This document shows, piece by piece, positions 28,024 to 64,000 of a DNA stretch of 64,000 nt; positions within the stretch are counted from its first letter, which is position 1; each line of letters starts with the position of its first letter. The notes below the pieces were generated by a model. The model saw only the letters and a program-made list of their open reading frames with translations, made no database searches and was not told the DNA's origin. The position numbers and the translations under genes were made by a program. The DNA lies in contig OZ244048.1 in NCBI GenBank assembly GCA_965215265.1, positions 3,520,001 through 3,584,000 on the forward strand, given 5' to 3'. This DNA comes from Candidatus Poribacteria bacterium. GTDB lineage: Bacteria; Poribacteria; WGA-4E; WGA-3G.

Positions 28024-28163
28024 TGTTTGTTTTCTCCTTGATACATGATGCTAAGATATTACAACAAATCACGTTTTAACGCAACAAACTTATAAATGCA
28101 GGTGGTTTTGAGGTTGGAGTAGAAAAAGTCGTATCGGAATCTGGAGATTTTTCAGAAACGGGG

Positions 28164-29024
28164 TTAGAGTATTTCACGTGTGAAGGTATAGACATGTCTT
28201 AGCCACGATGCGTAATAGATGCCATGCGCGTAACAGAAATAGAGAGTCTTTAAGATGACGATGCTGATGAGGCATGTGGCGAGCCCTGCAAGGATAATAA
28301 CATCCAACGTGCGGCATTTTGTGGTATGAAGAGAGGTGCGCGTTACAGCGGTGTCCGGGGAAAAGCCGCGGCTTTCTACGGATTCGCCCAAGTGAGTTGC
28401 CCGGCGGATGTTACTGGCTAAGATTGGACGGAAACTATTGAGGATACCCCGTGCAGTGGTTAAAAGATTGAGACGGAGGTAGCGGAAGCCGCGCAATCTC
28501 TGTGAACGGAGCACGATGGCGGTTTCATTAGCGATACCGGGGAGGAAATGAAGGGCAGTTGTTACCATGAATGCTAAAGGGGCAGGGACGCGGAGCTGCC
28601 CGAGTGCGATGAGCAGCTCACGTGGTGCGGTACTCCAGACGATGAAACAGCCGACGGTTAACGTGGTGTTAAAACGGATGGATTGGAGAATACCGTGGAA
28701 TAAACCTTCGCGGTAAAGCCGGATGCCTCCCGTCAGTTTCCCTAAAAATGGGAATTCTGGGGAAATGAAGGTAAGCAGCACGGTGCGCGGCGATTCGTTG
28801 TAGAAAATGCCTTGGCTGTAAACGATACCCCAGGTCGTAAAAAAGAGGATGCCGAATAGGAATTTCAATTGGCGGCGTGTCGGTTTTGAGACAGCGATGA
28901 GTGTTAAGCTAGCAAGGAAACCGGTGAGCAGTGCACTGGGGCTGTCGAGTATAATGACAACGCATCCTGTTATCGTCATGATGCCGATTTTTGTACGGGC
29001 ATCGAGCGTTGTTTTTTTGTGCAT
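28164..29024 (-). CDS. ECF transporter transmembrane T component
   Basis: SQRLRG and SVESRG conserved X-R-X motifs; multiple TM helices. Confidence 0.85.
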   Translation of the reverse strand: MHKKTTLDARTKIGIMTITGCVVIILDSPSALLTGFLASLTLIAVSKPTRRQLKFLFGILFFTTWGIVYSQGIFYNESPRTVLLTFISPEFPFLGKLTGGIRLYREGLFHGILQSIRFNTTLTVGCFIVWSTAPRELLIALGQLRVPAPLAFMVTTALHFLPGIANETAIVLRSQRLRGFRYLRLNLLTTARGILNSFRPILASNIRRATHLGESVESRGFSPDTAVTRTSLHTTKCRTLDVIILAGLATCLISIVILKTLYFCYAHGIYYASWLRHVYTFTREIL

Positions 29025-29187
29025 AGTGTTTTTTTTACCTCCTGTTGCATGCTATAACTGTGGGAATGGACTGCTGAGCACAATACCTAAAAGCCTCCGG
29101 TAGACGAGGTGCCAACCTCACCGGTCACAAGATTTAAATCATAGTAACTCTACTATAATCCCATAAGATGAGCGATAAGTCGTCCGC

Positions 29188-30756
29188 CTATAAATTCTGT
29201 AGTTTGTGATGTTCAGGGGTGCCGTCAAAAATTAATTGTCCTTTGTGTAGGCATAGTACCCGGTGTGCATATTTCAGAGTAAGTTCCGGATCGTGTGTTG
29301 TGAAGATTAGCGTTCTCTTATCTCGTTGGATGTGTTGGCAGAGCTCGTTCATTAATTGGTGGCTGTGCTGGGTGTCCTGCCCGGTTGTGGGTTCGTCAAG
29401 CAGCAAAAGGTCTGGCTGTAGTGCAGAAATTGCGGCGACGGCGACGCGTTGGCGTTGCCCGCGTGAGAGCGCGTATGGTGGTTCGTAGGCGAAAGTGTAT
29501 ATGTCAAATTGAGAGAGTGTGTCCTTGAGGCGGTGTTGGACAGTTTTGGGGTGTAATTTTAGGTTTTTGAGTCCAAATGCGACTTCATCGCCGACGGTTT
29601 CGGCTTGTAACAGGAGATCAGGATTCTGAAAGACAATGCCGACTTTCCCTACGAATTGGTGGAGTTTGTTAGTCTTTATAGTTTCGCCGTTCAGTAGAAT
29701 TTCACCGGCTGTTGGGCGTAGGAGTCCTGTGATGAGGTGGATTAACGTTGTCTTACCGGAGCCGTTTTCACCCATGATGGCGATAACTTCCGCGCGGTTG
29801 ACTTCGCAAGAGATTGACTTTAGCACCTCAGATTTAGCATTCGGGTAGGTGAAGGTGAGATTTTGGGTTTTGAGGATGGTTGCTTGCGTAGTGGACTTAA
29901 CGCCGCCATCCTCACTTGTCAAGCCGGAATGTACTTTAATCTTACTATGCTTCGTTGTCAGCGGGGGGCTCACGGCATCCGTGCTATCCTGCCTTATTAG
30001 AGGTGTGGATTGAGGTGGTTGTACACCTAGACGGCGGTATGGTTCTAGGTAGAGAAATGCCTTCCGTCTGGGTAGATTCAATGTGAGCGTCCCGTTGTGG
30101 AGGAGCCAGACACGGTTACATAGAGACGCGACTGCGGCGGTTCTGTGGGTTGCAAGGAGGACAGTGATTCCGCGTTGAAGGTTCAATTTTTTGACAATAT
30201 CGAGAATGTTTTTGGCAGCGCGAGGGTTAAGGTAGCTTGTAGGTTCGTCAAGGAGAAGTACCCTCGGTTGCATTGCGCAGAGGCATGCGAGAGCGACTCG
30301 CTGTTTTTCGCCGCTGGAAATTTCTGCGGTGCGCCGGTTACGGAATCCGGGTAAGCCGACCTGTTGCAGTGCTGCGTCGATGCGATGCGAAATTTGCGCA
30401 GGTGCGGTGCCGAGGTTTTCGAGTCCAAAGGCGATTTCATCTTCAACGTGCGTGCAAAATAGCTGCCGGTCGGGTTCTTGGAATAAGAGGCTGACGTGTC
30501 TGCAAGTTTGCACGAGGGGTTGTTCAGAGACGTTTTGTCCGTCTACCTGCACGTTGCCGGTGAGAGAGCCTGCGGATGCATGGGGTATTAATCCGTTGAT
30601 GGTTCGCAAGAGTGTGGATTTGCCTGAGCCAGTCGGTCCGGTGAGCAGCACGAAGTCTCCGGGCGCGACGGTGGCGGTGATGTTCCGGAGCGTGGGGCTG
30701 TCGCGGCTCGGGTAGGTAAAAGAGAGATTATCTAAGCGTATTTCTCCCATAGACAT
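29188..30756 (-). CDS. ECF transporter ATPase with two fused ABC domains
   Basis: Two Walker A (GPTGSGKS, GENGSGKT) and two LLDEPT motifs. Confidence 0.9.
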   Translation of the reverse strand: MSMGEIRLDNLSFTYPSRDSPTLRNITATVAPGDFVLLTGPTGSGKSTLLRTINGLIPHASAGSLTGNVQVDGQNVSEQPLVQTCRHVSLLFQEPDRQLFCTHVEDEIAFGLENLGTAPAQISHRIDAALQQVGLPGFRNRRTAEISSGEKQRVALACLCAMQPRVLLLDEPTSYLNPRAAKNILDIVKKLNLQRGITVLLATHRTAAVASLCNRVWLLHNGTLTLNLPRRKAFLYLEPYRRLGVQPPQSTPLIRQDSTDAVSPPLTTKHSKIKVHSGLTSEDGGVKSTTQATILKTQNLTFTYPNAKSEVLKSISCEVNRAEVIAIMGENGSGKTTLIHLITGLLRPTAGEILLNGETIKTNKLHQFVGKVGIVFQNPDLLLQAETVGDEVAFGLKNLKLHPKTVQHRLKDTLSQFDIYTFAYEPPYALSRGQRQRVAVAAISALQPDLLLLDEPTTGQDTQHSHQLMNELCQHIQRDKRTLIFTTHDPELTLKYAHRVLCLHKGQLIFDGTPEHHKLQNL

Positions 30757-30971
30757 GTTAAGATGCTGCCGCGTATCGTGCTCGCGAGCTCATTGCCGAC
30801 GCACGGAGAGTGTACTAAAGTGCCTAAAGTTGTTTGATGTCTGCGACCTGTCTGTTCGTAGTAGCGCGATTGATTGTGCGTCTCTATAAACAAACCGGCC
30901 GCGTGCGGCACACTAAGTGGGTGGACGGCTACAAACCTTTGCAGCGGATATCGCGAACTAGAGATGCATTG

Positions 30972-32954
30972 CTATTCTAATCCTTCGATGCGGACTGGTA
31001 CAGATCCGAAGAGCTGCTCCAAGTGTCGCGTAACGGCATCTTGGAATGCTGCGAAGGTGTCTTGGGCACCGTGCTTGAAATCGTCATGAAGCTGCGCGTG
31101 CTGGGCTCGGACTCTGTTGAAGAGGTTTTGCACGTAGTTCTGTACTTCATTGAGCCGGTCACTCTGTGCCTTGGCGAATTTGGCGATAGCGGTTTTGAAG
31201 GCATCCAGTTCGGCGGCGAGGTATTGCTTGAAGACGGAATTCTGGAATCCGGCTAATGCCTCGTATGCGGCGTACTTGAAATCTTCGTGAATTTTGTCGT
31301 ACTCTGCCTTCACCCGTTTAAAGAGTTGATGGGCGTACTGATTGATATCAGCGATGCGTTCGCCCTGGGTTGTTGCAAACTGCTCGACGCGTGCTTTAAA
31401 GGCATCCATCTCTTGGTTTAAGAGGTTTCTGAAATCGGCAACAGCGACGGTGTAGCGGGTTGTCTTCTCCAAGTGGTATCCCATGACAGCGAGGCGTACG
31501 GCTTCAGGGAACATGCTTCGGTGATTCTTGAGGACTTTGACGAGATATCGGAAGTATGCTGGCCCCTGTTTAGAAAAGAGCTGCCGTTGCATTGATCGGA
31601 AGAAAGCGAAGAGTTCTTCGGTGCCGACGCTCCTGACGTTGTGGCCTGTGGGGCGCATGTGCTGTAAAAGCGTTAAGCAGCGTTCAAAATAGTTTTCCAA
31701 TTTGGAATCGTAAAGGGTTGAGACGACGCGGCGGTATTCTGCCATGAGTTTGTCACGTGGCATTTCTGGTATGAAATTGAGGCTCATATCGGTATTGTTG
31801 CCGCTGGATTCCTCTAAGAGTCGATTTTCGCGCTTTAATCGGTACCAGAGATCAGTCTCCTTTAAGGCAGTGAGGAGTCCTGCCATTGCCATAGGAATGC
31901 CTGCATCCTGAATAAATTTGATGTGCGAATCGAATTCGGTGTCTCCATCTAATCCGACAATAAAGCCGCCTGTGACTTCTAGGCCTTTGTTCTGTATCTT
32001 TCTGACGGCATTGAGTAAGTAGCTACCGGCATCTTCGTCCTTGCTAGTATTCTGCCCCTTGGAGGTGCTGAGTAACGCGGTTTCGTTTGGGCTTTCGATG
32101 CCGAGGAATACCATGTTGAACCCTGCATCGCTCATTGCGTCGAGCATTTCTGGTATTTCTACGAGGTTGACGCTGGCTTCGGTGTAAAGTGCGAAAGGGT
32201 ACTGGCGTTTTTCTTGCCATTCTTGGACGGCAGGTAGGAGCCGCATGGCATCGCGCTTATTCCCTATGAAGTTATCGTCAACGACGAACATGGCACCGGA
32301 CCAGCCGAGCTGGTATAGCATCTCAAATTCAGCCAGCATCTGCTCATTGGTTTTCGTGCGCGGAACTCTGCCGAAGAGTTTAGTGATGTCACAGAATTCA
32401 CAGTTGAAGGGGCATCCGCGTGAAAATTGGAGTGCCATAGAACCATAGGCGTTGATATTAATCAGATCGTAGCGTGGTAAGGGTGCAATAGTAATAGATG
32501 GCTTGCGTTTTTCGGGGTAAACGTCTTTAGCATTCCCGCTCTCGAAATCGGTTAAGAATTCTTCAAAGGTCTCCTCGACTTCCCCGAAAAGAAAGTGATC
32601 TACGGTTCCGTTGCACTCTTCTCGAATGTTATCATGGTAAGAGGTCGGGTGTGGTCCGCCTGCGATGATCGGAATTCCGGCACGGTTGCATCGCTGCACG
32701 ACCCCGTAGAAGGAGTCTTTCTGAACGATCATGGTTGAGGTAAGCACAACATCTGCCCACTCAAGGTGCGTGTCGGTGAGCGGTTCTATGTTCATATCAA
32801 CGACTTTGAGCCGGTAGTTGTTGGGGAACATGCCGGCGATAGTTAATAAGCCGAGGGGTGGCATTGAGGATTTCTTTCCCAAAAATTCTAAGGCGTATTT
32901 AAAGCCCCAATATGATGGTGGGAACTTCGGATAAACAAATAGGGCATTTGGCAT
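30972..32954 (-). CDS. B12-binding radical SAM protein (DUF4070-type) with duplicated C-terminal helical domain
   Basis: PPLGL, GGP, RGCPFNCEFC (CxxxCxxC), VDDNF. Confidence 0.88.
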   Translation of the reverse strand: MPNALFVYPKFPPSYWGFKYALEFLGKKSSMPPLGLLTIAGMFPNNYRLKVVDMNIEPLTDTHLEWADVVLTSTMIVQKDSFYGVVQRCNRAGIPIIAGGPHPTSYHDNIREECNGTVDHFLFGEVEETFEEFLTDFESGNAKDVYPEKRKPSITIAPLPRYDLININAYGSMALQFSRGCPFNCEFCDITKLFGRVPRTKTNEQMLAEFEMLYQLGWSGAMFVVDDNFIGNKRDAMRLLPAVQEWQEKRQYPFALYTEASVNLVEIPEMLDAMSDAGFNMVFLGIESPNETALLSTSKGQNTSKDEDAGSYLLNAVRKIQNKGLEVTGGFIVGLDGDTEFDSHIKFIQDAGIPMAMAGLLTALKETDLWYRLKRENRLLEESSGNNTDMSLNFIPEMPRDKLMAEYRRVVSTLYDSKLENYFERCLTLLQHMRPTGHNVRSVGTEELFAFFRSMQRQLFSKQGPAYFRYLVKVLKNHRSMFPEAVRLAVMGYHLEKTTRYTVAVADFRNLLNQEMDAFKARVEQFATTQGERIADINQYAHQLFKRVKAEYDKIHEDFKYAAYEALAGFQNSVFKQYLAAELDAFKTAIAKFAKAQSDRLNEVQNYVQNLFNRVRAQHAQLHDDFKHGAQDTFAAFQDAVTRHLEQLFGSVPVRIEGLE

Positions 32955-33302
32955 AATCTGTGTGCATCTCCAATTTTAATCACTCTGAATTCTATAATAT
33001 CATTGGTTAAGATGGTATTACCTATAAATAAAAATAGATTTTAACACCCCGACCTCGTCACTTACCCTCGGGGTATTCCATGTTCAAGAACGAATTACAA
33101 TTGCACTTTATTCTTCACGACAGTACAAAGGGGTTCAATTCTCTTAAAGACAGTTTGTCAGAACCCAATGTGCTTAATAGGATACCACAATTTCCGTTTT
33201 TTTGCAATTCTTTTTGACGTTTACTTGTCTAGAACGTTTACGAAATAAGTTGGGTTCACGTTTCAAGCTGCTAAGATGTTAAAGTGAAATAGCTAATTAC
33301 TA

Positions 33303-34418
33303 ACCTAAGTTGCCAGCTATAAAAAAGTTGTAAATCCATGGGTTCTCCTTTATAGTGTTTATATCACAATAAAACCAAAGGAGCCCCCATGGACTTAACT
33401 ATTGTAGCAGTTTATACCCTTTGTGACGCTCCTTTACTCTCACTCGGACATCAAGAACATCTACAAACACAGATGACAGATGCAGAAGTGATGACTACCG
33501 CCCTTGTCGCCGCCAGAGACTTCGCAGGCACTCATCAAAATGCATGTTCTGCTTTGAAGACGCTCGGCTATATTCCAAATAGGCACCGAGCGTCTCGATA
33601 CAATCGTAGACTTCATCGAATCACACCGCTGTTTGAGGCACTCTTTGAACATCTCGCTCAAACCGCCAAAACGGAGAACGACAATAACATCTATTCGGTG
33701 GATACCTTTGCTGTCGCAGTCTGTGATAATATCCGTTTTTGTATATCTCCGTAAAGAATTGTCCCTGCTTGCAGGGTGAATTCTTGTCCGTCAACGCTTA
33801 TGATTTTGTTAAATCGTGTGTAAATTTCGTAGGAGATTCCCTTAGGCATAGCATAAAGCAAGCGGCTCTGGCGAGATTTTCACAGGGTTGTAAATAGCAG
33901 CAGCCTTTATTGGGCTGAAATATACGACATTTCTCGGTTTCGCAGGTATCAAGGCGAAGCCTACCTAGGGAAGATTGCCAGCAAACGGCGGCATTTCTAT
34001 GGGCTCAAAGTCCATCTGATGGTGTCTGAATCAGGGGCTATCGTTGAAGCTTTCTTCACACCGGGGAGCAGTAACGATGTGCTTGGCATGCGGTGTTATC
34101 GTTTTTACCTGCCTGCGGGTTCCGTGATGGACACCGATAAAGCATATTGCAACTATGCCATTGAAGATGCCCTGGGGGATATAGAGATTATGTTCAAACC
34201 GTTACGGAAGAAGAATGCCAAACGGCAGTATCCGCCGCCTGAAGTCTATCTACACCAGTCTTACAGAAAACGCGTTGAAGTGACAAAGAGTCTTGTTGAA
34301 AAACTCTTACCGAAGTCTATCCACGCGGTGGCGGCCCACGGATTTGAACTGAAACTTCTTTTATTTCTCATCGCCATAAATATAAAAATGCGATTTAAAG
34401 ATTCGTGGCAATCTAGGT
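33303..34418 (+). mobile_element. IS982-family element with its transposase interrupted by a 192-bp repeat insertion
   Basis: Imperfect terminal inverted repeats ACCTAAGTTGCCA / TGGCAATCTAGGT; MTDAEVMT, SRYNRR, VDTF, ASKRRHFYGLKVH, DKAY, RKRVE motifs; ORFs 33389 and 34019 are in one frame. Confidence 0.85.
33737..33928. repeat. Two back-to-back family-A repeats inserted in the transposase
   Basis: Minus-oriented unit from 33741 (with a nested hairpin) and plus-oriented 54-bp core 33872-33925; removing them restores VCDNIR-ISRFRRYQG. Confidence 0.85.
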
Positions 34419-34493
34419 TAATTTAATGTAAAAGGACACATAGCACAACGCTTAGCGTCTCAAAATCAGGATACGGAAGATAAAATCACAACG

Positions 34494-34567
34494 ATGTTAA
34501 CAATTGGTAACCTCCACATCCCCATTTTCCCCTCCTCCTTGCACCGATGGAAGATGTAAGCGATACG
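34494..34567 (+). pseudogene. 5' fragment of a tRNA-dihydrouridine synthase (dusB-like)
   Basis: MLTIGNLHIP[1-nt frameshift]FPLLLAPMEDVSD; similarity ends abruptly after that. Confidence 0.7.
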
Positions 34568-34762
34568 ATACGGCTGCGCACTCCTATTGTCCAATCGCAT
34601 CATAGAATTTCATCAGAATTTCTCCGATTGATTGCGGGTGCATTTGTTGTAACCTTAATGATACTTTTTATCTGTTAAGATTGCAAGAAAAAAAATGAGC
34701 AAACGTTGACTTTTTTGCATACGCGCCCCCAATTCGCATTTTTTTGCAGAAAATGTTAAAAA

Positions 34763-34900
34763 ATGATGATTTCTCCGAAAAAAAAGGATCTTTTGTTCGA
34801 CCCGGCTTGCATTTTTTTACGTCTTGTTCAGAAAAATGATCATTTTTCTGAAAAAACGGGTCTTTTGTTCGACCCGGCTTGCATTTTCCTACGTCTTGTT
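34763..34900 (+). repeat. Two-copy 72-bp tandem repeat upstream of the ECF sigma gene
   Basis: TCTTTTGTTCGACCCGGCTTGCATTTT..TACGTCTTGTT at 34789 and 34861. Confidence 0.85.
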
Positions 34901-35033
34901 ATTATGAAAGGCGCAGGAAAATACGAGCGAAAAATCGCCAAATGTGAAAAAACGGTGACTTCCTGCGACAAATTTAATCACTTGTAAGGTGGCGGGACAT
35001 ATTTCACTTTTTCCGACACCTTAAGAATAGCAC

Positions 35034-35618
35034 ATGGAACCTGAAACTTTGACAACGAATTCAGACACTCACTTACTTGAACGCATCCAAAAAGGGGACG
35101 ATACCGCCCTCGTAGCACTCATTGAAAGGTATAAACCTTTGATGATGACTATCGTGCGCGGTGAAGTCCCGGCTTATGCGGTAGAGGATGTGTATTTAGA
35201 TGCGCGTGCGGCGATGGTGGTTCGGTTTCGCAGGAATCCCGACGGCATCCGCACCGTGGACAAGTGGGTGAAGCAGGTGACGCGGAGCAAATGTCTCGAG
35301 TTCGGGCGGCAGCTTGCCAAAGAACAGGATGTGCGTGCTATTGCCGAAGACCTCTATAAAGCCGCAGAGGAGCGAGAGTTGCACCGGCATCTGTCTCGGG
35401 ACGTGCCTGATGAAGAAGAGGCGATGGCGGTTATCAAGGCACTAGGTTCCAAGTCTGTAGAAGTAGCCGTATTGCGTGCGGCGGGTTACACGTTGTCGGA
35501 GATAGGCAAACGGCTGAGAATTCCGAAGGACACGGCGAAGTCACGCTGGTGGAAGATTCGTGAGCGTGTTCATGAACATTTCGGATTGCCGTTTCCACCG
35601 AAAAACGAGAAGTCCTAA
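35034..35618 (+). CDS. ECF-type sigma-70 factor
   Basis: LLERIQKGD..ALVALIERY, VEDV, KW region 2; YTLSEIG..L.IP..TAKSR region 4. Confidence 0.8.
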   Translation: MEPETLTTNSDTHLLERIQKGDDTALVALIERYKPLMMTIVRGEVPAYAVEDVYLDARAAMVVRFRRNPDGIRTVDKWVKQVTRSKCLEFGRQLAKEQDVRAIAEDLYKAAEERELHRHLSRDVPDEEEAMAVIKALGSKSVEVAVLRAAGYTLSEIGKRLRIPKDTAKSRWWKIRERVHEHFGLPFPPKNEKS

Positions 35619-35785
35619 CGCGATTCAGGCTGCTTCCGGTTTATCCCTTTTTTGGATTCAAAAGGGGGAATGTATATTCACTTTCGTTGATTTATTTTGA
35701 TGCAGTGGACGTGTTATACTGAGTCACGGCGCCTCCTAATCAAAATGAGCGCTCTCATCTTTACCGTCCACAAGGAAAATCACTC

Positions 35786-36472
35786 ATGTTAAAGAACTAT
35801 TGGAAAACCGTCGCTGGTATGCTTCTCGTGCTGGTCCTCGGAGCGACAGGATATTTCCTCTGGTACCAACATCGGATGGCGCAGCTCCATGCGAACCCTG
35901 TCAAAATCTACAAGGGTACGATACGAGAAGCGACCGTGGTGCCAACCGCCACACCCTCTGCCGAGGCAGAGACTGTGCAAGGCGGGCATTGGCCTGGCGA
36001 GGAATGGCAGAGTGAATCACACACGATATCGCAACAGACAGATACTGTTGACACCATCGATACAACTGATGACACGATCGATACAGAGGAGATCGTTCCT
36101 TTTGAACCAACGGTTGAGGCGGATGTGCCTTGGGAAGAAACCGCAGAAGCCGAGCGGCTTTCACAGACATTGCTTCAGGATTGGAATGATTACTCCCAAA
36201 CTTTACTAGAGAAGTATCCAGCGATTTTTGATCCGGATGTACTTGAAAGAATGGCTCAGACTCAGGAGGGAAGAGCCTCGCTCAAATTACAAGCTGAATC
36301 TATGATAGAGGAGACTTTAGGTGAATTTGAGCGTCTGTTTAATCAACTTCCGAGAGAATTTGCACACGAAGTGCTTGATGTTTTGGAAGTTGAATTTCAA
36401 CAAAACCCACAAGGATTGCCCCCAGAATATATTCACCGAGCGCTAGGTAGAATGCGGGCAAGACTGAATTAA
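35786..36472 (+). CDS. Membrane-anchored or secreted acidic hypothetical protein
   Basis: N-terminal TM, low-complexity Thr/Asp/Glu linker, helical C-terminus; AAGGA RBS. Confidence 0.7.
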   Translation: MLKNYWKTVAGMLLVLVLGATGYFLWYQHRMAQLHANPVKIYKGTIREATVVPTATPSAEAETVQGGHWPGEEWQSESHTISQQTDTVDTIDTTDDTIDTEEIVPFEPTVEADVPWEETAEAERLSQTLLQDWNDYSQTLLEKYPAIFDPDVLERMAQTQEGRASLKLQAESMIEETLGEFERLFNQLPREFAHEVLDVLEVEFQQNPQGLPPEYIHRALGRMRARLN

Positions 36473-36482
36473 TGGAGGTTAT

Positions 36483-36956
36483 ATGATGATTAGAGATTTT
36501 CATAAGACAAAAACACGAAGAAGCCTGGGAGTCGGTCTGCTGATGGTTTTCATGATAATGATAACACTGTCCCCCGTTTTTTCCGACGACTGGAGAGATT
36601 GGGTGGGTCACGGCGTAGCGGTTGTTGGCCTAGGGGTGGCTGTCGCCGGTACAGCTGTGACATCCCCTGTATGGGGACCTGCACTTACTGTTGGTGGATT
36701 TTGTGCGGCCGCGGTCGGTATAGGTATAGGTATCTTGGATACAATGGATGACTCCGATGAGGATGAGACTTGTAGTCGTTGTAATGTGACATATGCACGA
36801 GGGACGGATCATTATTGTATATATGATCATATAGATGAAGAGCATGGCGGTGATGAGTCTTCCGAAGGCTCTTACGGTTATAGTACTGGGGGTTACGGCT
36901 ATTGCCCCAATGGTCATTATTATTCTGGAGTACATTCCTGTTACAGTAGTGATTAA
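36483..36956 (+). CDS. Secreted protein with a Gly/Ala-rich hydrophobic hairpin and a Cys/His-rich tail
   Basis: GGAGG RBS; signal peptide; GHGVAVVGLGVAVAG..GGFCAAAVGIGIG; CxxC..HxC and C..H..HxC motifs. Confidence 0.65.
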   Translation: MMIRDFHKTKTRRSLGVGLLMVFMIMITLSPVFSDDWRDWVGHGVAVVGLGVAVAGTAVTSPVWGPALTVGGFCAAAVGIGIGILDTMDDSDEDETCSRCNVTYARGTDHYCIYDHIDEEHGGDESSEGSYGYSTGGYGYCPNGHYYSGVHSCYSSD

Positions 36957-37047
36957 AGTCGTGAATAGTCGTGAGTTTACCTAGGTCGGGATGATTGCAC
37001 TTTTGGCTGCTTGTGCAAGTGACTTCGCCTGTACTCTTGCATCTATT

Positions 37048-37124
37048 GGCAGAAAAGAAAGATTTAAAAGTATACCTCTAAACATTTTCTTTAATGTTTA
37101 GAGGTATACTTTTTCTTTTTTGCC
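37048..37124. terminator. Long inverted repeat, probable bidirectional terminator
   Basis: Perfect 21-bp stem AAAAGTATACCTCTAAACATT / AATGTTTAGAGGTATACTTTT with flanking A and T runs. Confidence 0.7.
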
Positions 37125-37206
37125 TGGCTCAGTATATTACATTATTTATTCGGGCGGATTTCAGGTGACGCGGAGCAAGTGTCTCGATTTCGGGCGGCAT
37201 CTTGCC

Positions 37207-37326
37207 AATGGCACCATCGGCATAAACAACGCAGCGTAGGTACATGTCTTAATTATCGGGCTAGTGGTACTAGGCAACATCGTCTTCTTCATTCAGAAAG
37301 GACGACAGAAAAAGCAAAAACCTTGA
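37207..37326 (+). pseudogene. Diverged 3' remnant of a homolog of the gene at 4979-5794
   Basis: GTIGINNAA*VHVLIIGLVVLGNIVFFIQK versus GTEGINSASLVHMLILGLVVMGNVIFFIQR. Confidence 0.8.
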
Positions 37327-37409
37327 ATCGGCAGGAACGGATTGGGGCTTTACGGGGATGAGGCTTTCTGCGGTGATATTAACATCGTGTGCCTCTTTTC
37401 TTTTTAATA

Positions 37410-37464
37410 TGCTATAATTGCTATGTTTAATAAGATAGCAAAATAGTGTTTTTAAATTATAGCA
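37410..37464. promoter_or_regulatory. Nested palindromic operator/promoter upstream of the double-HTH gene
   Basis: TGCTATAATT...AATTATAGCA enclosing TTGCTAT...ATAGCAA; contains TG-n-TATAAT (extended -10). Confidence 0.5.
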
Positions 37465-37479
37465 GAATGGGGGTTTGAC

Positions 37480-38202
37480 ATGGCTCGCTTATCCATGATT
37501 GGAAATCATATTGAAAGTTTATTGTCTTTGTGTAAGAAGACACAAAAAATTGCGACGTTGTCGCGTGCGACGGGAGTCTCTGTGCATACGCTTTATCGCT
37601 GGCGTGATCGTGGGAAGTTAGAGGTATCAGGTCTTTATAGGGCTTTTTATGATGCGTTGACTTCGCCAGTAGGTGGCAGTAGCGGTGATGGCAAACTTGT
37701 AGAGCCGACGACGGCGAAAATTACATTAGAGCGAATAGATGCAATACTTGAAAAAGTCAAAATTGGCATGAGCTGGGATGCTATCGCACATGCTGTTGGG
37801 GTTTCGGCGGCGACGTTGTATCGGTGGATGCAGCGTGAGGGAACCGAACAGGCGGGGCTCTATCGCGAATTTTATGATAGGCTTGCTGAGTTGAAAATGA
37901 GTACAGAGTTATCTTTGATTGATTCGGTTATGAATAATGCTGTAGAAAGACAGGAGACTTTTACGAACAAGACGGTTACTAAAACAAAAGAGGGGAGGGT
38001 TGAATTTACATCAACCTCGAAGCCACCTAATGCTGAAATGGCTTTGAAAATGATGGAACGTATTAATCCTGTATTCTGGGCACCGATTGTGCCTCATCGT
38101 GTTGATGTTGATTGGGAGAAGACTGTGCGCGAGCAAGGTGGGGATCCGCGTGAGATTGAGGAGTTTGTTCGGTCGGAATTGGAGAAGGAGGGTTTAATTT
38201 AG
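37480..38202 (+). CDS. Double helix-turn-helix protein, terminase-small-subunit-like
   Basis: Two repeats (SRATGVSVHTLYRW..GLYRAFYD and AHAVGVSAATLYRW..GLYREFYD); beta hairpin, then PPNAEMALKMMERINPVFW. Confidence 0.6.
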   Translation: MARLSMIGNHIESLLSLCKKTQKIATLSRATGVSVHTLYRWRDRGKLEVSGLYRAFYDALTSPVGGSSGDGKLVEPTTAKITLERIDAILEKVKIGMSWDAIAHAVGVSAATLYRWMQREGTEQAGLYREFYDRLAELKMSTELSLIDSVMNNAVERQETFTNKTVTKTKEGRVEFTSTSKPPNAEMALKMMERINPVFWAPIVPHRVDVDWEKTVREQGGDPREIEEFVRSELEKEGLI

Positions 38203-38447
38203 AGTCAATGCATCGAACGGCTCAGACGAGATTTACACACGAGCTATCAAAACATAGATGTTGATGGTACGGAGATATAGAAATAAGCGTTGATTGGGAG
38301 AAAACGGTGCGGGATCAGGGTGGGGATCCTGCGGAGATTGAGGAGCTTGCGAGGAAGGTGATTGAGGAATCATAACCTAGTGAGGCTCAGACGAGATTTA
38401 CACACGAGTACCCACGACATAAGCGTTGATGGTACGGAGATATACGA
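38190..38447 (+). repeat. Two family-A repeats (cores 38227-38280 and 38392-38445) flanking a diverged duplicate of the HTH gene 3' end (38289-38375)
   Basis: VDWEKTVRDQGGDPAEIEELARKVIEES* versus VDWEKTVREQGGDPREIEEFVRSELEKEGLI*. Confidence 0.85.
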
Positions 38448-38453
38448 GAAGTC

Positions 38454-43487: not shown

Positions 43488-43766
43488 ATATATTTCCGTA
43501 CCATAAAGGGTTATGTTGTGTTAAATCCGATGTAGATCTCGTCGGAGGTTCCTGATGTAATGAATCTAAACCTAGAAGAGCTCAGACGAGTGGCAGGATA
43601 GGTAAGTTTACGAAACGAAATTGAGGGTGGTGCCCGCCCACCCGAATCCTTCTTTGTTTCTCCTGAAACCTGAGGTCAATACCTTACCCGTCAACCCAAT
43701 GGGTGGCGAGTAAAAGGTAGTGATAGCGTGTCCTTCAGGACTCGCGATACTACCTATCTCGCCACT
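43488..43766. repeat. Family-A core (43488-43541) followed by a nested family-B palindrome cluster
   Basis: 54-bp core plus extension; GTGGCAGGATAGGTA, CCCACCCGAATCC, CCCAATGGG, GCGTGTCC..GGACTCGC motifs. Confidence 0.8.
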
Positions 43767-44384: not shown

Positions 44385-44645
44385 TTTTCGTATACTGGAG
44401 CCCCATCAACGTCTCTGTTTTGATAACTCGTGTGTAAATCTCGCCAGAGCCATTCTAGGTTATGATTCTTCAATAACTTTTTTATTTTCGTATACTGGAG
44501 CCCCATCAACGTCTCTGTTTTGATAACTCGTGTGTAAATCTCGCCTTTTTCGTATATCTCCGTACCATCAACGCTTAGGTATTGACAGCTCGTGTGTAAA
44601 TCTCGTCGGAGATTCCTTAGGTTATGATTCTTCAATAACTTTTCT
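44385..44645 (-). repeat. Three tandem family-A units (cores 44390, 44490, 44552)
   Basis: The first two cores are identical at 100-bp spacing; the third is diverged; extensions GGTTATGATTCTTCAATAAC. Confidence 0.9.
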
Positions 44646-47200: not shown

Positions 47201-47345
47201 GTATATCTCCGTACCATCAACGTCTAGGTAATGATAGCTCGTGTGTAAATCTCGTTTTTTTGTATATTTCAGCCCGATAACGCCTGATGTATTGTCAATG
47301 ACTGTGTAAATCTCGTCGGAACCGTTCGATGTATTGTCTCTAAGA
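47201..47345 (-). repeat. Two tandem family-A cores (47201-47254, 47262-47315) between the kinase and the regulator
   Basis: 54-bp cores; GGAGATATACAAAAAA runs straight into the regulator ATG. Confidence 0.9.
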
Positions 47346-47357
47346 TGCAACTTCATC

Positions 47358-48971
47358 TTACCTGCCACCCATTGGGCGGGCTTCAATTCCGGGCAGTGTA
47401 ATAATAAATGCTGCGCCAACTGCCAGCCCGGCTTTTACGTCAATGCTACCGTTGTGTTCCTCAAGAATTTTTCGACTGATATAGAGCCCAAGTCCAGTGC
47501 CTTTCTGTTTTGTTGTATAGAAAGGATGGAAGAGCTGTGGCACCTCATCGGGCAAAATCCCGGGTCCCGTGTCTTGAACGCTAATGTATACTAATTTTTC
47601 CGCCTTTCGGTACTCTGTTCGAAGCGTCAGCGTTCCCCCCGCTTCCATAGCTTCTATCGCATTGTAGAATAGATTCAGGAGAACCTGCGTTATTCCATCA
47701 GGGTTAACGTTCACCTTCGGATAGGGCGACTGATATTTAGTCACTACCTGAATGGCGTACCGTTGCAATTCTGTTTCACAAATTGAGAGGCTGTCGGTAA
47801 GCAATTCGTGTATATCACAAGGTTTCGCGAATTCCATCGCTGGTTTACTGAAAGCAAGCAGCTGCTCAATAAACCGGTTGAGCCGGTCAACCTCTTTGAT
47901 AATAATTTCGGCATATTCGTCTGATTCGGATTCCGTTGTCTGCTGGAGGAGCTGCGTTCCCAAGCGTATACTGCTGAGTGGGTTACGAACCTCGTGAGCA
48001 ATTGTCCGGACTAACCTTCCGAGCGTTGCCAGACGTTCAGATTCAACAAGCGCTTCAATAGTCTGCTGGATTTTGACGCGCTGTGCGATGATGGATGCAA
48101 CAATCGTCAGTAGCTGCTGGTCATCTTCCGCTGAAAATTCGTCCGATGCCTTATCAATAGTCAAGGTTCCCACAACTTGTTCTTCGACGATAACAGGTAT
48201 ACACCAGAACGCGATTGCATCCTTTCCTCTTTTTTTTATTTCAGAGTTCCCATTTTCTGATATTTTCGTGATAACACTTGAATCTTCATCAGAAATTTCA
48301 GATCCGAGTTCGAAGAGTTTAACATAACTTCTTGGGAGTCGGGCGTGTGGGACTCCAACGGCTTTACCTGTTGCCAGTACACGTTTCTGAATATCCCCAA
48401 TCAGCCCATCAGTTCCACGTTTGAGTTCCGCCGGGGTTAGTCCGAGAACTACCTCAGCCGATGTAACAACTTTTTTCTCGTTGTAGAGATGCAAAGCTCC
48501 TCGGTAGATACCGAGGCGATTGGAGAGAATTTCAATAATCCGCTGAAAGAGTTCAGCGAGCTCAAGATTAGCATTCGCGGCTTGACTCACTTCAAAAAGC
48601 GTCGACAAATCTCTTACGCGCTTTTCTAAATCTGCATTGATATTATTTATCTGTTTCAACTGTTCTCCGTGAACGCCGCGCTCGGTTCGTAGTTGTCGGA
48701 TAATATGAATGACTCCGAGGACAAGAAACGGATAAAAAAAGGCAACGACAATGCTTTGTATTTGGATTGGCTGGTGAAAAGCATAGATTAAATTGGCTGC
48801 TGCTGTCAGCGTGAGCAAGAATTTCTGTCCCCATTCTCGATCGTATATCACAGCGAGCATCATCACGCCGTAGTAACTGTGGCTCAGTATTTGATAGTAC
48901 TGTGGCACGTGAAGTAGATATACCAGCAGATTTGAACCAAGCACTAAAAGTGCCAGCAGAAATGTTATCAT
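47358..48971 (-). CDS. Membrane GAF-domain sensor histidine kinase
   Basis: TM helices, GAF domain, AHEVRNPL, NAIEA, DTGPG, PFYTTK..GTGLGL. Confidence 0.92.
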   Translation of the reverse strand: MITFLLALLVLGSNLLVYLLHVPQYYQILSHSYYGVMMLAVIYDREWGQKFLLTLTAAANLIYAFHQPIQIQSIVVAFFYPFLVLGVIHIIRQLRTERGVHGEQLKQINNINADLEKRVRDLSTLFEVSQAANANLELAELFQRIIEILSNRLGIYRGALHLYNEKKVVTSAEVVLGLTPAELKRGTDGLIGDIQKRVLATGKAVGVPHARLPRSYVKLFELGSEISDEDSSVITKISENGNSEIKKRGKDAIAFWCIPVIVEEQVVGTLTIDKASDEFSAEDDQQLLTIVASIIAQRVKIQQTIEALVESERLATLGRLVRTIAHEVRNPLSSIRLGTQLLQQTTESESDEYAEIIIKEVDRLNRFIEQLLAFSKPAMEFAKPCDIHELLTDSLSICETELQRYAIQVVTKYQSPYPKVNVNPDGITQVLLNLFYNAIEAMEAGGTLTLRTEYRKAEKLVYISVQDTGPGILPDEVPQLFHPFYTTKQKGTGLGLYISRKILEEHNGSIDVKAGLAVGAAFIITLPGIEARPMGGR

Positions 48972-51598: not shown

Positions 51599-51840
51599 GT
51601 ATATCTCCGTACCGTCAACACCCAGTCGGTTGCGAGATCCCCGCCATCTATAGATAAAAGGTAGTGCAAGCGTGTCCTGAAGGACACGCGATGGGGATTC
51701 ATCCCCGCAAGCGGGGAGTTGCGAGATAGGTATTCAGTGTCTCTCCTGAAAGGAGAGACAAAGAATTCCTTTTACTCGCAACCCATTGGGAACTTCCCCT
51801 ACCTATCCTGCCACTCGTCAGGGCCTTCCTAGGTTCAGTT
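51599..51840. repeat. Family-A unit split by a family-B palindrome cluster
   Basis: GTATATCTCCGTACCGTCAAC at the left, CTCGTCAGGGCC..CTAGGTT at the right; hairpins GCGTGTCC/GGACACGC, CCCCGC/GCGGGG and GTCTCTCCT/AGGAGAGAC in between. Confidence 0.8.
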
Positions 51841-52691: not shown

Positions 52692-52797
52692 AGTGGCAGG
52701 ATAGGTAGGGGAAGTTCTCCCCGCTTGCGGGGATGAATCCCCATCGCGTGTCCTCGAGGACACGCGATACTACCTTTTACCTGCCACCCACTGGGTA
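52692..52797. repeat. Family-B palindromic element overlapping the ribD stop
   Basis: GTGGCAGGATAGGTA...TACCTTTTACCTGCCAC arms; perfect 26-bp palindrome ATCGCGTGTCCTCGAGGACACGCGAT at 52743-52768. Confidence 0.85.
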
Positions 52798-53895
52798 CCC
52801 TTCAATTAGCAGATCGCCATCGCCACTTTGCACGTGTTGTACTGTTAGTCTTTGTAGCTGTGGTGCGGCTGCCAAGGGGTGTATTCCTGCACCGCCAAGT
52901 GGACCTGGAGCATGCGCACCGCCGATAAACTTAGGTGCAACAAAGCACATGAACTTATCAACAACTCCTGCTGTAACGGCCGAGGCATTCACTTCTGCGC
53001 CGCCTTCTATTAAGACGCTCGTTATATCGTGTGCCCCTAACATATCCATCAAGGTTTTGATACAGAGGTGTCCTTGATTTATAGGGAGCGTTATGACTTT
53101 CGCGCCGGCCGTTGTAAGAGCGTAGACGTTTTTGGCAGGTGCGTCTGGTCCAACTGCGATGATAACCTCAGCACGGCTTGAAGTGTTGAAAATTCGAGCA
53201 TCTGCCGGGGTTCTACCTTGTGAATCTAGTACGACTCGAACTGCATCCTTGCCTGAACGATGCAGGAGGCGCGTTGTTAATCGAGGATTGTCCCGGATAA
53301 CCGTGCCTATGCCGACAAGAATTGCATCGACTCCATCTCGTATCTCATGCACCAACTGTCGTGATGCAGTTGAGGTAATCCATTGTGATTCCCCCGAAGA
53401 AGTTGCAATTTTTCCATCCAGACTCATCGCAGTCTTCAATATGACAAAAGGTCTTCCTGTCCGGATGTATTTCCTATGAACCTCATTTAGGTGTGCGGCA
53501 TCTTCAGCACACACGCCTACATTGACGTAAATGCCAGCTGCCTCAAGTTGACGAATCCCCTTGCCTGCAACTTGTGGATTTACGTCTAGCTCCGCCACAT
53601 AAACCGCTGATATGCCTGCCTCAATGAGTGCATCGGTACAAGGAGGTGTGCGTCCCCAATGACAACACGGTTCCAGGTTTGTATAAAGCGTCGCCCCTTT
53701 AGCGGCCTCCCCTGCTGCTTGGAGTGCATGAATTTCTGCATGCGCGCCGCCTGCTCTCTGATGGTACCCTTCACCTATGCACTTACCGGCTTTAACAATG
53801 ACTGCGCCCACGAGAGGATTCGGACTTGTCCGTCCCTTTCCTTTCTTTGCCAAAGCCAGCGCGCGTTGCATAAACGCCACATGTCTCTCGTTCAT
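52777..53895 (-). CDS. ribD: Riboflavin biosynthesis deaminase/reductase
   Basis: PNPLVGA, HAE, LEPCCH..TPPC, SLDGK, EGG; start MNERH. Confidence 0.95.
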   Translation of the reverse strand: MNERHVAFMQRALALAKKGKGRTSPNPLVGAVIVKAGKCIGEGYHQRAGGAHAEIHALQAAGEAAKGATLYTNLEPCCHWGRTPPCTDALIEAGISAVYVAELDVNPQVAGKGIRQLEAAGIYVNVGVCAEDAAHLNEVHRKYIRTGRPFVILKTAMSLDGKIATSSGESQWITSTASRQLVHEIRDGVDAILVGIGTVIRDNPRLTTRLLHRSGKDAVRVVLDSQGRTPADARIFNTSSRAEVIIAVGPDAPAKNVYALTTAGAKVITLPINQGHLCIKTLMDMLGAHDITSVLIEGGAEVNASAVTAGVVDKFMCFVAPKFIGGAHAPGPLGGAGIHPLAAAPQLQRLTVQHVQSGDGDLLIEGYPVGGR

Positions 53896-62054: not shown

Positions 62055-63080
62055 ATGTCAAAAAACAGTAATTACCGTGTTGGACTTGTCGGCACCGGCG
62101 GTATCGCCCGGGCACACGGCAAGGCATGTCAATTGGCAGAACATGCCGAATTGGCTGCGATTTGTGATGTATCGGAGCAGGCATTAGCCAATTTCGGTGA
62201 GCAGTTTGAAGTGGCTACTGATAACCGGTACCTCTGTTTAGATGAGATGTTGGCATCTGAAAATTTGGACATTGCAATTATCTGTACTTGGGGTGCCTAT
62301 CACGCTGAAACCGGTATTCAGATAGCTGAGTCCAGAGCGGTTAAGGCGATTTTGTGTGAAAAACCGTTCACTTCAACAGCAGCAGAAGCAGAGGCTTTTG
62401 TAGATGCGGCACAGGCCAATGGAGTGCTCGTCGCGGAGGCCTTCAAGTTCCGGCACCATCCGATGCACCTCAAAGCGAAGGAACTCATCGATTCAGGTGC
62501 AATCGGTGATTTTATGACGCTGCGCAGTACTTTCTGTACAGGTGGTGGTGGCGGCGGTCCAGAGAAACGTCGACCTGAGGCGAATTGGCGGTTCAACAAA
62601 GCAAAAGGGGGCGGTAGTATCTACGACCTCGGTTGTTACTGCATCCACCATGCACGTTTTATGTTTGATGCTGAACCGATTCGGGTTTCGGGTGCGTCGC
62701 AAGCCGGATTAGAAGTCGACGATGCGGCGTATCTACTCTTAGTTTTCCCCGGTAACCGCACTGCGCAGCTCTCTGTCGGCTTTAATTGCGCCGGAGGACA
62801 GTACGTGGAAATGTCCGGTACCGGTGGCATGTGCAGGCTCGACCGGGTGTGGAACAATGAAGATTCTCCTGTTAACATAGAATTGACCACGCGAAATGGA
62901 CACGAAGTCATTGATATTGAACCATGTTTTCAGTTTGCATTACAATTAGAGCATATGTGTGAATGTCTCGCGACAGGAAAACCACATCGTATTTCACCAG
63001 AGAGTTGTGTAAATCAGATGCGGGTCATTGATGCTGCCTTTGAAGCCATGGCAACAGGCAGAACGGTCGAATTGGGTTAG
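62055..63080 (+). CDS. Gfo/Idh/MocA oxidoreductase
   Basis: GTGGIA, CEKP, GGGSIYDLGCY. Confidence 0.9.
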   Translation: MSKNSNYRVGLVGTGGIARAHGKACQLAEHAELAAICDVSEQALANFGEQFEVATDNRYLCLDEMLASENLDIAIICTWGAYHAETGIQIAESRAVKAILCEKPFTSTAAEAEAFVDAAQANGVLVAEAFKFRHHPMHLKAKELIDSGAIGDFMTLRSTFCTGGGGGGPEKRRPEANWRFNKAKGGGSIYDLGCYCIHHARFMFDAEPIRVSGASQAGLEVDDAAYLLLVFPGNRTAQLSVGFNCAGGQYVEMSGTGGMCRLDRVWNNEDSPVNIELTTRNGHEVIDIEPCFQFALQLEHMCECLATGKPHRISPESCVNQMRVIDAAFEAMATGRTVELG

Positions 63081-63148
63081 GTTCCCCAGAACTATGGTAG
63101 TCGGCGAGTGAGCACGTCAGAGCTCACCCACGGAAAATATGTCTATTC

Positions 63149-63231
63149 GTATATCTCCGTACCATCAACCTCTATGTTTTGATAGCTCGTGTATAAATCT
63201 CGTCTGAGCCTCTTGATGTTTTGTCTCTAAA
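63149..63231 (-). repeat. Family-A unit (core 63149-63202)
   Basis: Near-identical to the reverse complement of 38200-38280. Confidence 0.88.
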
Positions 63232-63258
63232 TAGAGAGAAGAGAGAGATGAACAGATT

Positions 63259-64000
63259 ATGGCACATTTTTCTGATATTAAAGTCCTTACGTTTGACTTA
63301 TTCGGAACGATTTTAGACCTCGGTAGTAGCCTTACACCGTTTATTGAAGAATCATTTTTTTGTATATTTCAGCCCGATAACGCCTGATGTATTGTCAATG
63401 ACTGTATAAATCTCGTCTGAGCTTCTTGATGTTTTGACTCTAAATTAAACCCGCCTTAACTGTGCGCGGGGCCAACGTATCGCCGGGTACATTTTGGGAA
63501 CAGTGGCGGTACCGTCAGCGGATTGAGCAATATCAGGACACGATTACGATGCTTGGGCATAGCGGTTATTTAGAAACAGTGCGTCGTGCCTTGCACTATA
63601 CACTGAGAGGCAACGGTGTTGATGCCTCCCCCGAGACTGTAGAAGAATTTATGCAAGGTTGGCATCACCTTTCTCCATTTCAAGAAGTTTTAGTAGCCCT
63701 CAAACGTTTGCAAATTCGCTATCAGTTAGTCGTGCTCTCCAACGGGGATGCGGATTTTTTAGCTTACCTCGTTAGCGAAAGGGTTGATTGGCAATTTGAT
63801 CAGGTAATTTCGGTTACATCCTTCGGCGCGTTTAAACCGCATCCGGCTGTCTACCGCGGTGCTGCTGGAAAACTTGGTGTTGATGTCAACGCGTGCATGA
63901 TGGTATCGGCAAATTCGTTTGACATCATGGGGGCGCGGGCGTGTGGGTACAAAGGTGCATTTGTAAACCGCTATCGCCTACCCTATGAGGATACCCTTTA
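63259..64000 (+). pseudogene. Haloacid dehalogenase type II, interrupted by a family-A insertion (about 63355-63455); runs off window
   Basis: FDLFGTILD motif I, then after the insert WEQWRYRQ..LSNG..FKPHPAVY..VSANSFDIMGA; removing 101 bp restores the frame. Confidence 0.85.

Follow-up and report, generated by a model that had tools for sequence, protein, structure and literature searches.

The units of repetitive extragenic palindromic (REP) sequences measure about 35–40 nt, BOX elements hold a variable number of internal modules, and IS91/ISCR elements, Helitrons and 5'-truncated retrocopies have one fixed end and a variable other end which can take up flanking gene sequence. One-ended rolling-circle elements and retrocopies also lack target duplications and occur as tandem copies. 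Here we compare such systems with a species-specific mosaic repeat family, built on a 61-nt unit, in Candidatus Poribacteria bacterium (GenBank assembly GCA_965215265.1, contig OZ244048.1). We analysed a stretch of 64,000 nt (positions 3,520,001 to 3,584,000 of the contig; hereafter the window), near the end of which one copy of the family splits a gene for a type II haloacid dehalogenase (HAD) hydrolase. Our reading, to which we give a probability of about 0.8, is that a single-unit copy landed between codons 32 and 33 of this gene and broke it. The genome of the window (G000; 4.83 Mb, a single contig, C1) was compared with relatives including a closed genome of the same genus (G001).

Rickettsia palindromic elements (RPEs) are short repeats which are also translated in frame inside protein genes (PMC10969869). 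They are like the present family in being short, non-coding and lineage-restricted, in being translated in frame within genes and in having no known transposase. We likewise found copies read in frame in conserved genes, in 7 of 7 cases compared with G001 and in one UvrA-like open reading frame (ORF). Unlike RPEs, the family lies mostly at operon junctions and forms tandem units and convergent unlike pairs, its single copies do not fold and the HAD copy is out of frame. It should be noted that this likeness is drawn from properties and not from a sequence comparison, and that Rfam gave no match on the family copies.

REPINs have been described together with the RAYT transposase (PMC3116915). 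REP/BIME mosaics resemble the present family in their short units, alternating orientation, position between operon genes and lack of target duplication. In contrast to REPIN/RAYT systems, no Y1 (RAYT/IS200) gene was found in G000, single units insert alone (HAD and the clusters c94 and c95) and copies are found inside genes. [quoted passage not shown] BrickBuilt, in which a leader and a tail flank a tandem minisatellite (PMC4596501), is described as always intergenic. Unlike MITEs, the family has arms which are only about 65% alike and a variable distal end carrying pieces of neighbouring genes and, unlike BrickBuilt, it has copies in genes; neither a target duplication (at most a 2-nt TT ambiguity at the HAD site) nor a related full-length insertion sequence (IS), in a search of Pfam families only, was found. 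By analogy, one-ended elements come close in their fixed and variable ends, lack of target duplication and tandem copies; unlike them the family has no fixed short target sequence, and G000 holds a single reverse transcriptase gene (1.42 Mb). No paper on such repeats in Poribacteria was found in a narrow full-text search, which is a weak basis for a negative.

The interrupted HAD hydrolase gene

A sequence-only reading of the window had proposed that an insert of about 101 bp brings a stop into a HAD gene, and this was borne out. The insert (63355–63455; like all features of the HAD region, on the forward strand) splits the gene between codons 32 and 33, and its length leaves a remainder of 2 on division by three, so that the frame is shifted. 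The first ORF begins at the ATG at 63259 and ends at a premature TGA within the insert (63385–63387), giving 42 residues of which the last 10 are insert-derived. Its 32 native codons (63259–63354) include the nucleophile motif FDLFGT. The second frame begins at 63456, fills the window to 64000 and is open for 199 codons to window position 64055, past the window end. Both halves are free of further stops and frameshifts, and the first start codon in the C-terminal fragment, the GTG at 63462, has no Shine-Dalgarno-like sequence ahead of it.

We searched the C-terminal frame against 40 relatives and found a match in all 40, and the best 30 matches outside G000 (E-value 1.6e−52 or better) were open frames without internal stops. 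In each of 11 aligned orthologous loci the site was uninterrupted (…PFIxES/Lxx…, with DNA ...GAATCN/YTN...; the slash marks the site), and the sole gap in the DNA alignment at the site was the 101 nt. At the junction, ...SLTPFIAES/LIARGANVSPATFWEQW... in G001 corresponds to ...SLTPFIEES/101 nt/LTVRGANVSPGTFWEQW... in G000, and the protein across the site reads PFIAES/LIARGANVSP in G001 and PFIEES/LTVRGANVSP in G000. The alignment with orthologues which had been suggested as a check therefore gave a clean empty site in 11 of 11 loci, and any target duplication is confined to the 2 nt (TT) over which the junction can be placed either way. The family itself was not found in any of the 25 relatives searched, including G001. 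From the empty orthologous loci together with the absence of the family from these relatives, we conclude that the 101 nt were inserted into the HAD gene.

The G001 orthologue passes the NCBIfam model TIGR01428 (haloacid dehalogenase type II) with 135.7 bits against a cut-off of 125.4. The C-terminal fragment alone scores 123.1 bits over profile positions 32–194 only, and the missing positions fall in the N-terminal fragment. The HAD gene also matched Pfam Hydrolase/HAD_2; ‘dehalogenase’ should be taken here as a family name only. Since the nucleophile motif is cut off from the rest of the enzyme, the product would have lost its function and the gene is a putative pseudogene. The earlier claim that the family had inactivated this gene thus stands as to the inserted family member, the broken gene and the clean empty site, and its functional part is predicted from sequence. 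A HAD paralogue with 36% identity exists, and the interrupted gene appears to be tolerated as dispensable. The break is an ordinary insertional inactivation.

Within the insert, a 61-nt unit (63356–63416) opens with a T-run head followed by GTATATTTCAGCCCGATAACG...GTATAAATCTCGT. It continues into a tail arm, CTGAGCTTCTTGATGTTTTGACT (63417–63439), and a distal end (63440–63455) which is the reverse complement, with one mismatch, of the end (38185–38202, ...KEGLI*) of a gene resembling a terminase small subunit (TerS-like). The nearest unit within the window is the second of a tandem pair (47256–47316, forward strand); 60 of 61 positions are identical, the single difference being A against G at 63406, and the one-base difference from the core at 47262 that had been noted is thereby confirmed. 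The unit is co-directional with the gene, which is the reverse of the orientation usual for the family ahead of genes, and when read by eye its subfamily has stops in all three forward frames. A hairpin or structured-RNA reading of the HAD copy was rejected, as its fold is not notable (z −0.1 and −1.7) and Rfam gave no match. A second family copy, of unit plus tail (cluster 292; 63143–63236, forward strand), lies in the spacer upstream of the HAD gene, which is 160 nt here and 69 nt in G001.

The near-identity of the two units had also been taken as a sign of recent movement, and this was not supported. We placed contigs from 4 runs of 4 studies (X1, X3, X7 and X8) on 62900–63900 with a junction-bridging rule of 31 nt; X1 is possibly the sample behind the window assembly. 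The right junction was bridged in all 4 runs with 31–80 nt on the insert side, the contigs beginning at 63376 in X1, X7 and X8 and at 63425 in X3. The X3 contig differs at 5 of 476 positions and so represents another strain. Across the left junction the contigs of X1 reach 30 nt and those of X3 27 nt, short of the 31-nt rule, and X7 and X8 had no cover over 63240–63341, a gap which proves nothing. No contig of the 4 runs joined 63354 to 63456 as an allele without the insert would, although contigs drop rare variants and a rare empty allele could go unseen. In X3 and X8 position 63453 is T, which is the state of related long-tail copies and removes the mismatch to the end of the TerS-like gene. 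Clearly, the insert occurs widely and is older than the divergence of these strains.

The repeat family and the positions of its copies

A profile of unit plus tail, built from the window copies, gave 736 matches in the genome, and a unit-only profile gave 852 units. The units alone amount to about 52 kb, and 79.5 kb were masked when 60 nt of tail were added, which corresponds to 1.1–1.6% of the genome. They fall into 394 clusters, comprising 157 singles, 77 convergent pairs with spacers of 37–57 nt, tandem runs with a period of 61–62 nt and mixed arrays, and adjacent units were found 186 times in the +/− arrangement vs 18 times in the −/+ arrangement. The arms of convergent pairs (n = 108) had a median identity of 65%, with none reaching 80%, compared to 68% for shuffled pairs, and the spacers of doublets were self-complementary at 64% vs 53% for shuffles. 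The convergent arrangement is a mosaic of unlike unit types and not a palindrome. A fold-back (self-primed) origin of the convergent pairs was rejected because their arms are no more alike than random pairs. Single copies such as that in the HAD gene have no inverted ends. The head of the family is a fixed run of 3–8 T's, and the distal end is variable and may include neighbouring gene sequence.

Outside this genome, a scan of public genomes with a 20-nt core gave only 9 single matches, in unrelated taxa and chance-like. Rfam 15 gave 3 sub-threshold matches on 43000–64000 of the window, none of them on a family copy. At about 1632644 of C1 a 16-nt head fragment, TTTTTGTATATTTCAG, occurs three times in tandem ahead of a complete unit, and many other heads come after truncated unit pieces, which looks as if copying had stuttered by starting anew several times. 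A hairpin repeat forms a second family (GGCAGGATAGGTA...loop...TACCTTTTACCTGCC; its ends are CCAGTGG/CCACTGG), seen at 43711–43748, 47350–47388, 51655–51692, 52731–52768 and 52769–52807 of the window; it has often inserted into a tail of the first one, as at G000 positions 1595320, 1612173 and 4515604.

We compared the ORF pieces flanking every cluster with G001, of which bases 1–2,800,000 of 4,001,648 (70%) were covered. Some match in G001 was found for 335 of 425 clusters. In 121 clusters both flanks were at most 90 nt apart in G001, and the median gap was 226 nt here vs 47 nt there. The unit head pointed toward the start of the downstream gene in 102 of the 121, and its reverse complement, GGAGATATAC-A(n), often stands directly ahead of the start codon.

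Copies were also found within genes. Thirteen matches to G001, in 12 clusters, span a family copy, and all seven that were examined are in-frame inserts of 21–37 residues relative to G001; by the ORF criterion alone there are 26 read-through candidates in 24 clusters. In-frame read-through was found in at least 8 genes, including the UvrA-like one, which reads ...PPKDENVNQNRERIWVGGRRDLHTNQQNISDDGTEIYEKSDLRGRDELF... and has about 35–40 extra residues. Solved UvrA chains, which served as the reference because the compared bases of G001 do not include its UvrA region, align on both sides of this insert and not to the middle ~35–40 residues. Between 1078000 and 1083300 of C1, UvrA-like frames run without a stop through several copies, among them a cluster of four units (1078389–1078648); the insert at 1082433 is the one checked against solved UvrA, and the remaining copies are assigned by the ORF criterion only.

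Four clusters had flanks which are contiguous in one ORF of G001 and separate here, namely HAD, c95, c401 and c366. The last of these (G000 4339099) is ambiguous and was not counted as an in-gene insertion, its flank identities being low (46% and 32%). Cluster c95 (G000 1275684) is an 84-nt insert with a TGA in a gene (C1 1275052–1276161) which also holds the 87-nt in-frame copy c94, and c401 (G000 4517609) is a 93-nt insert with a TAA. No target duplication beyond the T-run ambiguity was found at c94 or c95. In the window, a convergent unit pair of 193 nt (33737–33929) breaks an IS4/IS5-like transposase gene (33389–34426). The left unit of this pair holds a further hairpin insert of about 35 nt (AAAGAATTGTCCCTGCTTGCAGGGTGAATTCTTGT), the start of which is also found after a unit head at G000 477165 and 484642. 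The HAD copy belongs to a handful of insertions that destroy a gene, against many others that are tolerated.

Target sites, the TerS-like gene and alternative explanations

We were able to anchor 525 of 834 unit heads, giving 489 head flanks. There was no strong target consensus in the logo across these 489 flanks, and nine insertion sites with known or inferred junctions had no flank sequence in common. A weaker form of targeting is a tentative possibility, namely that integration favours near-palindromic sites resembling the family's own tail end, GA(A/T)TCA, and that the native GAATCA of the HAD gene attracted the copy. In 17 of 489 flanks GA[AT]TCA is present at most 12 nt upstream of the head, vs 0.47–0.49% in two controls, and GA[AT]TC lies right at the junction in 10 of 489 vs 0.3–0.6%. 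Single copies also end at or near the motif (c94 ...TGATTCTAAT and c12 ...ATGAATCAT). However, more than 90% of heads have no such motif, and of nine junctions examined the HAD junction alone has it on the head side. The same preference could let resident tails draw new heads and so build tandem and nested arrays. Arrays with a period of about 87 do place a head straight after ...GATTCAATC, but many of the positive flanks are nested in other copies and are not independent. We regard weak targeting of this kind as a whole as unlikely.

As to how the family moves, we found no plausible partner enzyme among nine Pfam transposase and reverse-transcriptase families searched in G000. Y1_Tnp (PF01797) gave 0 matches in the 4.83-Mb genome, with a control positive in 6 of 14 genomes, and TnpB, IS110 and rve gave 0 matches each. 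The Y2_Tnp (IS91) profile also gave 0 matches, but its control was likewise silent in every genome, so that this zero carries no information. DDE_3 matched fragments only, DDE_Tnp_1 gave marginal matches of at most 24 bits, one of them in a gene which is itself broken by the family, and RVT_1 matched the one gene at 1.42 Mb.

The TerS-like gene (37480–38202, forward strand) is species-specific and encodes 240 residues with two helix-turn-helix (HTH) motifs. In PHROG it matches terminase small subunits best (E-value 1.4e−11). Of 40 relatives searched, one gave a marginal match and 39 gave none, and its only homologue in a large protein database (P0002; 199 residues) is 32% identical. At 7 further places in the genome, beside family tails, only the last ~25–50 residues of the gene are matched. 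Short remnants ending in KVIEES* are nested truncations of its 3' end. P0002 has an ending in common with these remnants (...DWERTVREQGGDPREIEEIVLKAITEP; aligned end ...EIEEIVLKAITEP), and the ...EIEELARKVIEES end is therefore native to the protein family and not made by the repeat. The intact gene ends ...EKEGLI*; in reverse complement, these last codons give the ‘long tail’ ...CTAAATTAAACCCTCCTT... which is present in five copies close to the HAD insert and, in truncated form (63440–63455), in the HAD insert itself. How far a family tail extends into the reverse-complemented TerS-like 3' end varies from copy to copy, while heads have a fixed end, and the TerS-like locus is the probable place of origin of the family.

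Directly downstream, two family copies on the reverse strand (38203–38449) surround a duplicated piece of the TerS-like 3' end which ends ...ARKVIEES*. Over 38107–38167 and 38289–38349, some 60 nt or more of the 3' end plus the next repeat copy form a tandem duplication (period 182 nt), of which the two duplicates end differently (...EKEGLI* vs ...ARKVIEES*). The surrounding ~10 kb (28100–38450) have no counterpart in the compared part of G001 and lie at a synteny break; in that genome the neighbours to the left map at about 1.42 Mb and those to the right at about 0.91 Mb. The 28.1–38.45 kb region is probably an acquired island at a rearrangement point. It contains the broken transposase gene, a sigma-factor-like gene, small unknown ORFs and the TerS-like gene. 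The spacer ahead of the sigma-factor-like gene holds two tandem 50-nt units that are 92% alike (34779–34900), and a 47-nt stretch of that gene (35274–35320) recurs upstream of the TerS-like gene (37162–37208) with 94% identity. The TerS-like protein was rejected as the family's own enzyme, since only HTH motifs and PHROG TerS matches were found and no catalytic domain was seen.

Taken together, the pattern appears nearer to one-ended replicative copying than to DDE cut-and-paste. We read the family as a non-coding element which is copied and not cut. Every copy opens with the fixed T-run head, followed by the 61-nt unit and by a tail whose length varies and which, in longer copies, runs into the reverse complement of the TerS-like 3' end, beside which the family probably arose. 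Copies accumulate at operon junctions, usually with the head toward the next start codon, and those in genes persist mostly where in-frame read-through works, the HAD copy being among the few for which it cannot. A more specific version holds that the family is the amplified downstream flank of a phage-type TerS-like gene from the ~10-kb species-specific island, spread by one-ended replication. Copying would then start at the fixed T-run end and stop at a variable distal end, carrying up to ~50 TerS-like codons, and copies would be pasted without target duplication at operon junctions or into genes, often in frame. The process may be rolling-circle-like or RNA-mediated, with an enzyme from outside the transposase families searched. 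We consider this specific version rather improbable.

The sequence-only reading had further noted that the left flank of the insert matches 15 nt of what it took to be the element's own extension, and had suggested a homology-primed or self-targeting insertion. The match itself is exact. The 15-mer TTATTGAAGAATCAT (63341–63355, forward strand) covers the native codons F-I-E-E-S and the first T of the insert, and it recurs on the reverse strand at 44462–44476, one base from the position first noted (44463–44477), and at 44624–44638. It is thus found exactly at three sites in the window, with 0 expected from 100 shuffles. The partner, however, is not an extension of the element but the end of a TerS-like 3' remnant wedged between family copies, of which 44462–44476 are the last codons (..KVIEES), and 44624–44638 lie in a second copy of this remnant (..NRKVIEES*).

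Two observations favour the idea that this match primed integration or guided it, whether through annealing, a switch of template or recombination at short homology: random 15-mers from outside the family matched family DNA exactly in 277 of 200,000 draws (about 1e−3 per fixed position), and the match ends exactly at the junction. Yet the flank is native, as orthologues keep F-I-x-E/K-S at this position and G001 carries TTTATTGCAGAATCT where G000 has the 15-mer. The 12-mer ATTGAAGAATCA occurs 15 times in the genome: once in the HAD gene, once at an unrelated place (G000 3718522) and 13 times in association with the family, in remnants ending ...(GGDPxEIxEL)ARKVIEES* and followed by TAA/CCTAG..., the reverse-complemented family tail. 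The bases after the 12-mer are TAACCTAG in the 13 family-associated cases, CTGT at G000 3718522 and the unit head TTTTTTTGTATA in HAD. Because the remnants run on into a reversed tail and HAD into a forward head, priming or crossover would have given the opposite orientation, and none of the 15 occurrences is a donor with the arrangement needed, running from the match into the insert.

The same microhomology was also looked for at other sites and nothing comparable was found. A 12-mer in common with family DNA was present in 21 of 171 head flanks outside family DNA (null 0.7%), but most of these flanks can be seen to be parts of truncated units, left by nested or stuttered copying, and HAD alone matches the KVIEES* module. 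With the orientation wrong, the match not running on into the insert and no equivalents elsewhere, a homology-guided insertion is not supported, and we hold it to be clearly improbable. The 15-nt identity at HAD is in our view coincidental, and a weak preference for sites resembling GA(A/T)TCA may have contributed to it.

It is very improbable that the HAD gene is still alive, whether through removal or bypass of the insert in the RNA or during translation, or through an enzyme working as two split parts. The undamaged state of both halves and the in-frame reading of the family in other genes would fit such a rescue, but the subfamily of the insert has stops in every forward frame, the first start codon of the C-terminal fragment, the GTG, lacks a preceding Shine-Dalgarno-like sequence, the nucleophile motif would be on a separate 42-residue peptide, and the insert has neither a notable fold nor an Rfam match. 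That a repeat copy was misplaced into the gene during assembly is hardly credible, for although copies of the family are numerous and interrupt short-read contigs, the right junction is present in independent contigs from all 4 runs and the left junction is crossed by 27–30 nt in 2 runs, one of them from a diverged strain.

Several points weigh against the insertional reading or limit its reach. The loss of HAD function is predicted, and the frame is otherwise intact on both sides of the insert, which fits a young insertion or residual constraint. The identity of the 15-mer is statistically unusual, yet a single instance, and the excess of GA[AT]TCA ahead of heads makes some target bias possible. 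The cover of the head flanks, and of G001 at 70%, was limited. Lastly, ATTGAAGAATCA stands directly beside a family copy in two native genes, HAD and the TerS-like gene, which our reading does not fully explain; if the more specific one-ended version were true, the 12-mer at these two junctions would be a real recognition site. We nevertheless retain the reading that a single-unit copy of the family inserted into the HAD gene and broke it.

Meaning of the family for poribacterial genomes

The interest of this locus is moderate and comes from the repeat family rather than from the HAD copy, as the break of a gene by a repeat is routine. In an uncultivated sponge symbiont, the family joins traits which are separately known from bacterial interspersed mosaic elements (BIMEs), RPEs and one-ended elements: mosaics at operon junctions, translated in-frame copies and a variable end carrying gene fragments, together with no recognisable transposase. 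For the annotation of Poribacteria genomes it is a warning that split genes, false start sites and extra peptide segments are possible. The family is also a natural data set on how repeats move and on how far proteins tolerate them.

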